Source of the DNA: Phycisphaerales bacterium
Lineage (GTDB): Bacteria > Planctomycetota > Phycisphaerae > Sedimentisphaerales > Anaerobacaceae
Assembly: GCA_050117705.1 (NCBI GenBank)
Contig: JASFMF010000001.1
Coordinates: 1-25,388 of the forward strand
DNA length: 25,388 nucleotides
Reading direction: 5' to 3'
This document shows, one piece after another, positions 20,595 through 25,308 of the stretch. A program made the translations under genes and the position numbers. Position 1 is the first letter of the stretch. Each line of letters begins with the position of its first letter. A model generated the notes under the pieces. It was not told where the DNA came from and made no database searches. It saw only the letters and a program-made list of their open reading frames with translations.

Positions 20595-21473
20595 TCAGGA
20601 GTTTGCGACTCTTACAAGTTTCATCCCATAATCATTTATCCCCGGCTCTATTTTCGAATCTTTTCTTTTTTTAAGTTTTATTTTTTTAAACTTTCTATAG
20701 TCCGTATAATGATGCCAGCGTCCGAATCTCCAGACAACCTTAGTACAATCGGGATGCAATCTCGCTATCATTTTTGATTTTTCTAGTGTTCCATCGGCAT
20801 AAATTTCATCCGTATTACCGCCTTTCATTTTTTGAGTCGTTAATTTTTGCTGTAAAAAAGTGTTGAAAAGTATAGTACACCAGCCGGCTTTCATCATTCT
20901 AATCGATAAATCGGTATCCTCGTTATAACGACCACGCCAACGAAACGGAACATCGTTTCTAATAAAATTACAGGAATATATTCTAGTATTAGGTGTAAAT
21001 GGCGGTTTTTTAGATCTATCGGGAATAAACATTACATAATTAGGGCCGCCCATCGCTACGTTTTCATAACGTTTAATGAAATCCTCTATACATTTAAAAA
21101 TCGTGCCGTCTCTTACATATTGACGTTTATTATTATTCAAGCGTCTAAAATTCCTGATATTATCATCCATTATCCAATGATAATCAAAGCCGTTAGAGAT
21201 ACTGTAATCCCAAATAAAATTTCTTGCCGGTCCCGATCCACGGCTTTCATTGTCTTCCAATTTACAGCAAGCGTCATAATTTTTTTGATATTTTTTATCT
21301 AATATAACCAATTTGACGAACGGATTATCTTTAGTATAAAGCTTGTATTTTTTATATTCCTGATCTTCGATGATTAAATGATATTTTACTTTCATTATTG
21401 ATAAATAATCGCTCGTAAGACGTTTTTCATAGCGTCCTTTAGACGGGATATGGATCGGGTATTCAGGATTCAT
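20595..21473 (-). CDS. GT-A fold glycosyltransferase, TAGT/GREB1-like phage family
   Basis: IPSKGR, GPARN, WIMDDNI (DxD-like), RYNEDTDLS, QKMKGGNTD and RFGRWHH motifs. Confidence 0.8.
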   Translation of the reverse strand: MNPEYPIHIPSKGRYEKRLTSDYLSIMKVKYHLIIEDQEYKKYKLYTKDNPFVKLVILDKKYQKNYDACCKLEDNESRGSGPARNFIWDYSISNGFDYHWIMDDNIRNFRRLNNNKRQYVRDGTIFKCIEDFIKRYENVAMGGPNYVMFIPDRSKKPPFTPNTRIYSCNFIRNDVPFRWRGRYNEDTDLSIRMMKAGWCTILFNTFLQQKLTTQKMKGGNTDEIYADGTLEKSKMIARLHPDCTKVVWRFGRWHHYTDYRKFKKIKLKKRKDSKIEPGINDYGMKLVRVANS

Positions 21474-22119
21474 CTTTATAAGCTACGGATTTAACATCAT
21501 CCCTAATTTTTTTCGGATGATAAATGTATTTAGCGTCATCACTAACGACTTGTTTAATTAAAAGACAAAAATCTTTAAAATAATCTTCATTTTCAAAATG
21601 TACGATCAAACTTTTATACGGAGCATCGTCTTCCTGGTTAAATTCAGGCATTCCGTCCCATTCGGCATTAGGATCGACAGCATCATCATCTAATTCACCT
21701 ATAATAATTTCGGGAATATCGATAAAATTGCCTATCTCGGGAATATCGATATCAAAATCAAAAGTAAAAACCTGAAAACCTTCCTGATCGATCTTGGCAT
21801 AACGTGAATTGATTAAAAGCAGCTTTTCCGCAGCCTCTTTCTCGTTTTTCGCCTCGATCCGCACCACCGGAAGCTCATTACCCTTGATTTTATAACCATC
21901 AGATACAAGCTGCTTGACGGCCTTTAGCCGCTGGTGACCATCCAGAATTTTATTTTTCCATACGAATAACGGAAACGAAAAGCCGTACTTTAAAATCGAT
22001 TTCTTGAGCTTTTCAAGCTCGTCGTCCGAAATGGTTTTAAGCTCGCCCTGAAAAGCTTCAAGCTCAATTATCTCTAAGCCGTCTGCGGCTTTACATTTTA
22101 TTTTTATTTCTTTTGTCAT
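21463..22119 (-). CDS. ParB-like N-terminal domain protein with a TAGT-associated C-terminal domain
   Basis: LKKSILKYGF..P..VWKNKILDGHQRLKA is a ParB/Srx motif. C-terminal EWDGMPEFNQED..LIVHF...YHP is typical of the gene upstream of phage TAGTs. Confidence 0.8.
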   Translation of the reverse strand: MTKEIKIKCKAADGLEIIELEAFQGELKTISDDELEKLKKSILKYGFSFPLFVWKNKILDGHQRLKAVKQLVSDGYKIKGNELPVVRIEAKNEKEAAEKLLLINSRYAKIDQEGFQVFTFDFDIDIPEIGNFIDIPEIIIGELDDDAVDPNAEWDGMPEFNQEDDAPYKSLIVHFENEDYFKDFCLLIKQVVSDDAKYIYHPKKIRDDVKSVAYKDES

Positions 22120-22387
22120 AACTAAACTTGACTAAACCGAACCGTTACGATTTACTCTAACCATACTTTACTGTAGTGAACCAAACCATCACGATACTCC
22201 ACATTACAATACCATCACAGTTTACGCTATCTTACAATACCATCACAACACCTGGCTACACCAAACCATCACGGAACTCTACTGAACGAGACCGAAACAA
22301 TATAATACTTGACATTACCAAACCTTAACAAGACTATAACCGGACGTTACTGCATAATACGTCACGTTACTTAAACATGAGGTTACC
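22120..22387 (-). repeat. Non-coding pentamer array (NGT-NN)x51, candidate guide-RNA (vrRNA-like) locus
   Basis: Parsed by hand on the minus strand: 51 five-nt units plus 14 inserted nt. 45 units start NGT (15 GGT, 13 AGT, 9 TGT, 8 CGT), position 3 is T in 50 of 51, and positions 4-5 vary. No credible ORF. It fills the gap between the RAMP stop and the ParB start. Confidence 0.9.
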
Positions 22388-22388
22388 G

Positions 22389-23102
22389 TCACTTTATATA
22401 TTTAACGGACAATAGCTTATATTTACCATAACCGCCCGAGCCGCGCCATTGGCCCAGACCATTATATTTGCCAAATTTTAAAGCCTCGACTAATACTTCC
22501 GGCGTTAATCCCTTGTCATTTTTAAATAATTGAACTTCAAATTTAAATTTCGAATTTCTATTGATCACATCGCCTTTGCCCAGAAAAACCCGATCGCCTT
22601 TAGGTGTCTGTGCTCTGATCGACCGCTCGATGGTATTATCGGCATATTGGATCGGATGCTCTTCATCATCGCGGTAAAATCTAATTTTACGCGGGTTTAT
22701 CTTTACAAATAAATCCGTGCTTTTTTTATATGCTAAAACCTTGCAAAATCCATTTGCCGTAAGGCAATAGATATTGGCTTTAATATTTCCCAATATCATA
22801 TAATTAAATATAAAGACGCCAAAAACATCATTATGAAATCCGGTAGCCGTCTTTTCGCAGGCATCCGAGACGGACTCGATTTCTTCGTTCATTTCCGCTG
22901 CTGTTTTTATTGGGTGACCTTGAAATTCACCCATTTTATTTTGAACGTAATCGGTAAAAATCTTTTTGTTTTTCGGGACCGTTCCGATCATGGATTCGAT
23001 CAATTTAGCTGTAATTTTAATTTTTATACTCTCAATTTGATTTTTATCTTCAACAATCTCGTCCAATTCTTTTCTTGATGGAACGACCCATTTTGTGCCC
23101 AT
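22389..23102 (-). CDS. Stand-alone RAMP/Cas7-like protein (Vipr-like)
   Basis: 237 aa. First RRM-like strand IKITAKLIESMIGTVP, helix YMILGNIKA, ERSIRAQTPKGDRV, and a terminal Gly-rich loop GLGQWRGSGGYGKY followed by a beta strand, the RAMP signature. SD AAGGA. Confidence 0.8.
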   Translation of the reverse strand: MGTKWVVPSRKELDEIVEDKNQIESIKIKITAKLIESMIGTVPKNKKIFTDYVQNKMGEFQGHPIKTAAEMNEEIESVSDACEKTATGFHNDVFGVFIFNYMILGNIKANIYCLTANGFCKVLAYKKSTDLFVKINPRKIRFYRDDEEHPIQYADNTIERSIRAQTPKGDRVFLGKGDVINRNSKFKFEVQLFKNDKGLTPEVLVEALKFGKYNGLGQWRGSGGYGKYKLLSVKYIK

Positions 23103-24187: not shown

Positions 24188-24967
24188 TTAAGGATTTTTG
24201 TCAACAAATCTTTTCCCTATACACTCTATCAGCGTTTTTAAATCCCGTTTGTACCGCTTATGCTCCCTTACGGCTTCGGCTTCGCCTTCCCTTACGGTTT
24301 TCCGATCGTATTTGTTAAATTCTTCCCTATGGTGAACCCCTTTACAAAAATATTTGACCGGGTTCGGTTTGTCCCGACACTCATCGGCGAGCCAAGCCAT
24401 ATAATCAAACCCGTTTTTATCGATTCCGATCGTAAGAAACGTATTACTGATATTCTGGTTCACGCTAGCCGGGATTTTATTTCTGAGTTTTTTAAGACAG
24501 TCAGCGGTAGCCGAATTCGACTCCGCGATGGGTGGTTTAGGGGGCTGTTTTTGAGGCGGTTCGGGGGGTGGGTTTAACTTTCTTTTTTCCCTTTCTTTTA
24601 TAAAAGGAATAGGAAGTGCGGATTTCCGCACTTCTGAAGTGCGGGTTTCCGCCTCCCTGATGGGCGGGTTTTCGACCAGTTTGAACACTAAGGACCGGCC
24701 GGTTGATTTGATGATAATGAGGCCTTTTCTAACCGCCTCCTTGACCACCTCTTTGGTTGACCGGATGGATTTGTTCAGCAGCTTTGAAAGCGTCGCTATT
24801 TTATATTCGATATGACCGTCGTCGCCGAACGCCGAATACAAAATCGACATTAGGCGAAAGAGCCTATCGGAAATATCGCTTCTTAAAGCCAATGTTCTTG
24901 GAATTGCGAAAAATACTTGATTTCGGATGGGATTGGTTTGATACGTTTGTAAAGCTATAGCTGTCAT
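24188..24967 (-). CDS. Replication initiator with an N-terminal winged HTH (lambda O/RepA-like architecture)
   Basis: FFAIP..L....DIS...FRL...L...IATLSKLLNKSIRSTK..V.E...KGLI wHTH, Pro-rich linker and internal iteron-like repeats. Confidence 0.65.
   Translation of the reverse strand: MTAIALQTYQTNPIRNQVFFAIPRTLALRSDISDRLFRLMSILYSAFGDDGHIEYKIATLSKLLNKSIRSTKEVVKEAVRKGLIIIKSTGRSLVFKLVENPPIREAETRTSEVRKSALPIPFIKEREKRKLNPPPEPPQKQPPKPPIAESNSATADCLKKLRNKIPASVNQNISNTFLTIGIDKNGFDYMAWLADECRDKPNPVKYFCKGVHHREEFNKYDRKTVREGEAEAVREHKRYKRDLKTLIECIGKRFVDKNP
24613..24680. repeat. Three 23-bp-period iteron-like repeats inside the initiator gene (candidate origin)
   Basis: gaagtgcgga-tt-tccgcacttc (24613-24634, perfect 10-bp arms), gaagtgcgggtttccgcctccc (24636) and gatgggcgggttttcgac (24659), next to an A/T-rich tract at about 24576-24605. 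Confidence 0.7.
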
Positions 24968-25251: not shown

Positions 25252-25308
25252 CAACCAAGGCTGCAACCAACCAAGGCTGCAACCAAGGCTGCAACCAAGG
25301 CTGCAACC
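25252..25308. repeat. 12-bp tandem repeats (CAACCAAGGCTG)x4
   Basis: Exact copies at 25252, 25268, 25280 and 25292 plus a partial one. A further aaggctgcaac is at 25162-25172. Non-coding context. Confidence 0.9.

Follow-up and report, generated by a model that had tools for sequence, protein, structure and literature searches.

VIPR is a CRISPR-related, RNA-guided DNA-binding system that was described in 2026, and of which only type II, found in Escherichia phage SUSP1 and in a Pseudomonas fulva prophage, has been characterised and studied experimentally (bioRxiv 10.64898/2026.04.26.720920 / 10.64898/2026.04.26.720927). According to the published mechanism, each five-base unit of the guide RNA (vrRNA) is bound by one Vipr protomer; the fixed trinucleotide (GGY) of the unit is sequestered, and the two variable bases (NN) pair with double-stranded DNA, each third target base being skipped. 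In the cryo-EM structure, a protomer grips G1 and G2 while the following protomer takes Y3, and G1 is recognised by H17 and the G-loop residue D177. The filament contains six subunits per turn when free and five when bound to DNA, and accommodates ~25 nt of RNA per turn (bioRxiv 10.64898/2026.04.26.720920 / 10.64898/2026.04.26.720927).

Several relaxed or differently arranged arrays have also been described. The Methods of the VIPR paper mention vrRNAs composed of NNNGG, YNNNG or NNNNG repeats as alternatives and remark that internal degeneracy is frequent, and the legend of its fig. S18 describes staggered vrRNA arrays in which the vrRNA positions overlap by 1 nt, each vrRNA beginning where its predecessor ends (bioRxiv 10.64898/2026.04.26.720920 / 10.64898/2026.04.26.720927). 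In the same paper, these staggered arrays are given as unconfirmed by small-RNA sequencing. A later preprint reports WGT/NN and TGH/NN arrays beside Vipr-like folds (bioRxiv 10.64898/2026.10.21.760802).

A phage locus with a lone Cas7-like protein

The window, i.e. the whole stretch of DNA analysed here (25,388 nt), is the entire contig C1 of a 2.3-Mb assembly of 436 contigs. The phage contig may be merely binned with this assembly, which bears on the identity of its host bacterium. Window DNA, or part of it, is contained in 14 sequencing runs, mainly wetland metagenome runs, of which 0/14 are recorded as RNA. Two minus-strand genes, encoding a 237-aa protein and a 218-aa ParB-like protein, enclose an array of five-base units that extends from one base past the stop codon of the former to the start codon of the latter (Table 1). 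The array lies in the 5' leader of the ParB-like gene, ~1.5 kb upstream of terS and terL. Further downstream, the contig encodes a TET-associated glycosyltransferase (TAGT), a small HTH protein, a large terminase (TerL) and a P22-type portal. Two tandem repeats elsewhere in the window, one inside a DnaD-like/replication-initiator ORF and one close to the window end, are possible origin iterons.

The 237-aa protein belongs to no family in Pfam or PHROGs and has no relevant sequence match in the PDB, but its fold is informative. The AlphaFold (AF2) model (pLDDT 84.8) matches Cas7-family RAMPs in the PDB, namely type VII Cas7, Csm3 and Cas7-11. Among the AFDB clusters, it is matched best by A0A1F4YLN4 (E 3.6e-17, TM 0.69/0.72, 25% identity), A0A2D6XG06, A0A661D0E2 and X1U2U4. 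These four are among the five founding Vipr entries named by the VIPR discovery paper (bioRxiv 10.64898/2026.04.26.720920 / 10.64898/2026.04.26.720927). On the evidence of the modelled structure, the protein is a Vipr, and because both its fold and its four top AFDB matches point to the founding Viprs, the adjoining array can be assigned as a VIPR vrRNA array.

The protein has 85 homologues, and its C-terminal glycine-rich loop is invariant (in 53 homologues). The SUSP1 Vipr was located in KT454805, where H17, R138, D177, W178 and R179 agree with the published residues. In an hhalign profile alignment (probability 54%, E 1.3e-4), Q218-W219-R220 of the clade lie opposite D177-W178-R179 of SUSP1. 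The W-R pair of the G-loop is thus common to both proteins, whereas a Gln, kept in at least 90% of homologues, is aligned with the G1-reading Asp of SUSP1. As judged from this alignment, the Asp-to-Gln exchange at the G1-reading position would offer a reason for the relaxed first base of the array units.

The locus has the testable defining features of VIPR, i.e. a lone RAMP, a non-CRISPR context and an adjacent pentanucleotide array. With type II it shares the small stand-alone RAMP in a phage and outside a CRISPR locus, the same-strand five-base array and the W-R pair. It does not, however, show the SUSP1-like type II architecture of 9-16 in-phase repeats followed by a structured 3' tail: the array RNA has no significant fold (z -1.44) and no invariant structured tail, and its in-phase runs comprise 4-7 units as opposed to 9-16 in published guides (13-16 for SUSP1 by the present parse). 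Blocks abut with a one-base stagger, while SUSP1 guides are separated by 50-60 nt of tail and spacer, and a conserved accessory (vap) gene, as in type II, is not evident around the window locus or its relatives, the flanks of the vipr-array unit differing even among close relatives.

The array has no match in Rfam at gathering thresholds, hammerhead included, blastn against phage genomes returned no match, and no convincing promoter or terminator belonging to the array itself was detected. The lack of a fold, an Rfam match, a promoter and a terminator fits a protein-coated RNA derived from the vipr transcript, and the array is most likely transcribed together with vipr. If Vipr coats the array RNA, translation of the ParB-like gene, which starts right at the end of the last block, could also be affected.

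The likeness to class 1 CRISPR systems, whose backbone filaments consist of Cas7, concerns the related fold, the use of a single protomer for each fixed step of the guide RNA, and arrays in which modules appear, disappear and change places between conserved junction sequences. The step, on the other hand, is 5 nt with two read bases here, compared to 6 nt with five read bases in CRISPR Cas7 filaments. Furthermore, the window has no viral-origin spacers or adaptation genes, no other cas genes among the neighbours (ParB-like, TAGT, terS-like, TerL, portal and small unknowns), and no CRISPR-type direct repeats (~20-40 nt with unique spacers) detectable by TRF; the sole exact repeats, of 14 and 16 nt, span junctions.

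Table 1. Features of the window and of its array, in window coordinates
Feature	Position	Strand	Description
vipr gene	22389..23102	-	237-aa stand-alone Cas7-like RAMP; C-terminal glycine-rich loop G-L-G-Q-W-R-G-S-G-G-Y-G
Putative vrRNA array	22120..22388	-	51 N-G-Y-N-N units; manual parse reproduces the sequence exactly
Array leading part	22342..22387	-	16-nt GGT-headed piece (22372-22387), then 30-nt six-unit run (22342-22371) without GGT head
Short irregular pieces	22325..22341	-	6 and 11 nt, two register breaks
Block a	22294..22324	-	31 nt, GGT-headed, six units and one extra base
Block b	22268..22293	-	26 nt, GGT-headed, five units and a T, CGTGA+T end
Block c	22242..22267	-	26 nt, GGT head, TGTGA+T end
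Block d	22214..22241	-	28 nt, GGT head, internal 2-nt break before final TGTGA+T
Block e	22188..22213	-	26 nt, GGT head, CGTGA+T end
Block f	22163..22187	-	25 nt, GGT head, next GGT in register
Irregular pieces	22144..22162	-	6, 7 and 6 nt, three register breaks
Block h	22120..22143	-	final block, GGT head, runs into ATG at 22119
16-nt exact duplication	22204-22219 and 22232-22247	-	both copies cover a tail, the extra T and the first two units of the following block
14-nt exact duplication	22180-22193 and 22260-22273	-	both copies cross a junction (tail CGTGA, T, GGTTT GGT head)
ParB-like gene	21463..22119	-	218 aa
Start of ParB-like gene	22119..22135	-	right at end of last array block; no Shine-Dalgarno-like sequence
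DnaD-like/replication-initiator ORF	24188..24967	-	
23-nt tandem repeat	24613..24671		2.6 copies, inside the DnaD-like ORF
Perfect 12-nt repeat	25252..25308		3.4 copies, close to window end

Block grammar of the array and its family

The five-base periodicity of the array is pronounced. GT occurs 47 times on the minus strand; 25 of the intervals measure 5 nt, 10 measure 6 nt and 5 measure 10 nt, and 26 GT pairs are found at lag 5, compared to 2.9 +/- 1.7 (maximum 12) in 5000 shuffles. Secondary peaks of the lag spectrum occur at lag 26 (22 pairs versus 4 at lag 25) and lag 31 (18 versus 1 at lag 30). The 51 units consist of 15 GGT, 13 AGT, 9 TGT and 8 CGT units and of the non-conforming TAT (twice), CCT, AGC, GAT and ACT; GT occupies positions 2-3 in 45/51 units and G-Y in 46/51, and in most units only G2 and Y3 are fixed. 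The first-pass annotation had described insertions of 1-2 nt that break this register, GGT in 15 of 51 units, six consecutive blocks starting with GGT, four YGTGAT ends and two exact plus-strand duplications, all of which are reproduced by the minus-strand parse: the six GGT-headed blocks (31, 26, 26, 28, 26 and 25 nt) run from 22324 down to 22163, the four YGTGA+T ends fall between 22293 and 22188, and the 14-mer (22180/22260) and 16-mer (22204/22232) are the longest exact repeats of the array region.

Whether such blocks are real units or the outcome of randomly placed insertions was decided by the relatives. A same-strand five-base G-Y periodicity is present beside the gene in nearly all of 45 related loci, usually directly after the gene, and 43 non-redundant arrays beside related vipr genes (13.9 kb in total) were parsed with a six-state hidden Markov model comprising five registers and a background state, with equal switching costs. 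The arrays resolve into segments of 5k+1 nt: among 468 register shifts, 434 are +1, 19 are +2, 6 are +3 and 9 are +4. Blocks with precisely placed junctions are mostly 26 nt (130 blocks), 31 nt (101), 21 nt (54) or 36 nt (35) long, and those of 4-7 units account for 87% of all family blocks, with a mean of 5.37 units. Applied as a control to the experimentally defined SUSP1 locus, the identical parser found exactly four runs of 65-80 nt, with tails between them and no shifts within. The preferred block size is phage-specific (F 2.73; 0/5000 permutations), although it varies by one or two units within one array. The blocks noticed in the window thus hold up as real units, since GGY-headed blocks of (5k+1) nt are present in 43 arrays of the clade.

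Across the family, the unit that follows the extra base is GGY. A first-position G is found in 89% of block heads (n=327), but in only 25% of internal units (n=1446). Counting +5 from the last G leads to the G2 slot of the old register, and at 89% of 291 junctions this slot holds a G; this base is at the same time G1 of the next GGY, so that successive blocks overlap by 1 nt. Conformity at G2 drops to its minimum (78-81%) within the 3' half of blocks, in agreement with the earlier remark that non-conforming units of the window fall mid-block. As a family-wide block ending, YGTGAT was rejected: it is confined to the sub-clade of the window, blocks of other sub-clades end in GGCAA+T or GGCGA+T, and the family as a whole shows weak A-A-Y preferences only. 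In four loci (L021, L022, L030 and L043) arrays are located both upstream and downstream of vipr, with four arrays in L043, and arrays reach ~740-830 nt in L016, L030 and L041; all of these relatives with long or two-sided arrays show the +1 punctuation.

The 1-nt overlap at the junctions is matched by the description of staggered vrRNA arrays in the legend of fig. S18, and the layout of the window is probably that of these staggered arrays. The text of the founding VIPR papers describes no block lengths, GGY-head rule, shift counts or +1 block grammar, and the values reported here may thus add new detail to a layout that had already been noticed. The WGT/NN clusters (bioRxiv 10.64898/2026.10.21.760802) share with the window array the degenerate first position, the fixed G-T and the adjoining Vipr-like folds; that study, however, called exactly 5-nt-spaced runs frame by frame, and its text is without +1 punctuation.

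The canonical GGY is not present in each unit, neither in the window nor in internal units of the family. As YNNNG is the same unit as N-G-Y-N-N, the relaxed motif is already in print, and since the VIPR paper admits YNNNG and NNNNG repeats, the lack of a strict GGY does not bar membership in VIPR. The proposal that the window motif departs from a strict GGY code consequently loses its novelty, the more so as WGT/NN arrays have been published too. The view that the first base is nearly free applies to internal units; it fails at block starts, where 10 of the 15 GGT units of the window are located. Mismatch rates at the five positions are 0.157 (N1), 0.079 (G2), 0.068 (Y3), 0.124 (N4) and 0.069 (N5), as obtained from pairwise counts over 112 homologous segments of 47 locus pairs, uncorrected for shared ancestry. 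In six block families, column variability at N1 and NN (5/30 vs 5/60) differs in the expected direction, but not significantly (p = 0.29). By these comparisons, G at the first position is the punctuation of block heads, and the first position elsewhere the fastest-changing one. That the first base is least constrained in homologous segments argues against an additional code, and the suggestion of an information-carrying variant code at this position is not supported.

Gain, loss and reordering of blocks

The arrays of phages with closely related Viprs (83-95% identical) were compared block by block. The order a-b-c-d-e-f-g-h of the window becomes a-b-d-e-f-g-h in L046, b-e-f-g-h, preceded by unrelated blocks, in L047, e-like, c, b, e, f in L002, and e, c, f in L050; as modules that differ in order and number, blocks also recur in L001, L048 and L049. 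Block c is missing in L046 and L047, follows b in the window, precedes b in L002 and stands between e and f in L050. The orthologous e-f junction comprises 1 nt in the window and 2 nt in L002 and L050.

Block a differs from its L046 orthologue by 3 changes, block d is identical in L046, and the five copies of block b in relatives agree in their NN dinucleotides. Block e occurs in ten copies in eight related arrays, in which 9/10 NN columns are invariant and the N-G-Y columns vary. The 3' half of the 30-nt run in the leading part recurs in L002 and L050, and block h closes the arrays of L046 and L047 as well, regardless of the gene that follows.

Of 85 homology breakpoints, 51% lie at most 2 nt from a block head, compared to 18% for random positions. 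Judged by sequence comparison, gain, loss and reordering of blocks, together with breakpoints at their borders, support a role of the blocks as modular guide units. The 14- and 16-nt duplications, which span tail, extra base and head, are the expected trace of recombination or duplication at junctions. The earlier idea that blocks multiply by duplication and then diverge is in line with these observations.

The position of the vipr-array unit differs among these phages (21463-23102 in the window, L047:146-2606, L046:2501-4687 and L050:258-3409). It precedes the ParB-like gene in the window, lies between the TAGT glycosyltransferase gene and terS in L047, and adjoins N6/N4 methyltransferase genes in L046, L049 and L050; ParB-like, TAGT, methyltransferase, terS and small ORFs are the flanking genes among close relatives. 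The unit behaves like a mobile two-part cassette without a fixed accessory gene. The first ~45 nt of the gene that follows the array are nearly identical in the window (21463-22119, minus strand), L046 (3416-4687) and L050 (1169-3409), although the product is a stand-alone ParB-like protein of 218 aa in the window, a 423-aa protein with an N6_N4 methyltransferase domain in L046 and a 746-aa protein with methyltransferase and PALP domains in L050. A DNA-modification enzyme may therefore either be joined to the ParB-like module in one protein or come after it.

Possible function of the blocks

With slightly better than even confidence, the five-base-periodic stretch is considered a punctuated vrRNA array that belongs to a phage VIPR system and whose blocks are modular guide units. 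The full GGY head of a block would be the strongest Vipr site and would set the register, and the weaker NGY units behind it would be filled by cooperative polymerisation until the following head, one base out of register, terminates the run. Each block would thereby become a short guide module that acts or is processed separately, with nucleation and termination at the heads and with targeting by the 1-nt-skip rule. Two observations count against blocks as guides: a block of 4-7 units specifies just 8-14 target bases, compared to the 9-16 units of characterised guides, and block ends are partly conserved within sub-clades, which makes the variable part shorter still. More tentatively, the guide could be a string of one-turn modules, in which the GGY head and the extra base phase a filament of ~5-6 protomers and each module reads 8-14 target bases. 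Specificity would then result from many modules acting on one competitor genome, and register punctuation in place of tails, ribozymes or repeats would represent a distinct array grammar.

Target searches were based on NN dinucleotides that pair with a 1-nt skip between them. For all blocks with five or more units, perfect or one-mismatch hits in the 2.3-Mb assembly and in every fetched locus stayed at chance level, with 80 and 621 hits for real blocks compared to 66 and 604 for order-shuffled controls, and there was no self-targeting signal. Blocks e and f, joined as one guide with a junction skip of 1 or 2 bases, had 0 exact matches in IMG/VR. A 7-unit block of L022 matched in >117 contigs, which is at chance level, and these matches showed no extension into neighbouring blocks.

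A different function of the blocks follows if the array encodes one long vrRNA, or a few, in a continuous Vipr filament. The extra base would be a bulge that occurs about once per helical turn and adjusts the path length of the RNA, the full GGY would compensate for the bulge, and the blocks would correspond to structural turns. The mean block length of 5.37 units, with 87% of blocks at 4-7 units, is indeed close to the published 5-6 protomers per turn, a phage-specific preferred block size would be understandable, and no tails, hairpins or ribozymes separate the blocks. A contiguous target would, however, be scrambled by the different block orders of close relatives, as exemplified by block c in L002 and L050. 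Likewise, a structural turn does not readily account for block sizes that vary by one or two units inside one array, or for an e-f junction of different length in orthologous arrays; the lack of exact IMG/VR matches for e-f as a single guide is weak evidence in the same direction. A continuous filament is regarded as the main rival of guide modules, and as the less likely of the two.

It is improbable that the blocks are mere by-products of array growth by replication slippage or unequal recombination, with insertions as neutral scars. Junction-spanning exact duplications, the irregular pieces of the window (6, 7 and 11 nt, and the 2-nt break in block d) and the frequent internal degeneracy of vrRNAs, as remarked in the VIPR paper (bioRxiv 10.64898/2026.04.26.720920 / 10.64898/2026.04.26.720927), are what such a process would leave behind. 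Yet neutral scars are not expected to be +1 in 93% of 468 shifts and to be followed by GGY in 89%, 4-nt units resulting from deletions are nearly absent (9/468), and the spacing of 4-7 units persists in loci with only 25-40% protein identity.

Very improbable is a role outside guide RNA, either as a DNA site (packaging or ParB-type, upstream of the terminase module) or as an mRNA leader to which a repeat-reading protein binds and which controls the ParB-like gene, because the array, in spite of its location in the leader of this gene and ~1.5 kb upstream of terS and terL, accompanies vipr and not the downstream gene (TAGT/terS in L047, a position before the methyltransferase in L046 and L050, and upstream of vipr in some loci), its signal is limited to the strand of the gene, and its 5-nt period differs from the DNA helical repeat. 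A TRAP-like or CsrB-like leader and a packaging/ParB site had been considered as candidates and were dropped, as the upstream gene encodes Vipr and the array moves with vipr.

The locus and its ~45 relatives provide a quantified second array grammar, which consists of relaxed N-G-Y units without a tail, in blocks of 4-7 units that are set apart by one extra base and headed by GGY. The GGY-head rule aids the annotation of such arrays, since callers that demand an exact 5-nt spacing fragment them. Should the extra base instead bulge out once per turn, it would have implications for filament geometry. If the blocks are separate guides, the guide-length limit of the VIPR mechanism would be much lower, and register alone would delimit guides, which would be relevant to the engineering of compact multiplexed arrays.
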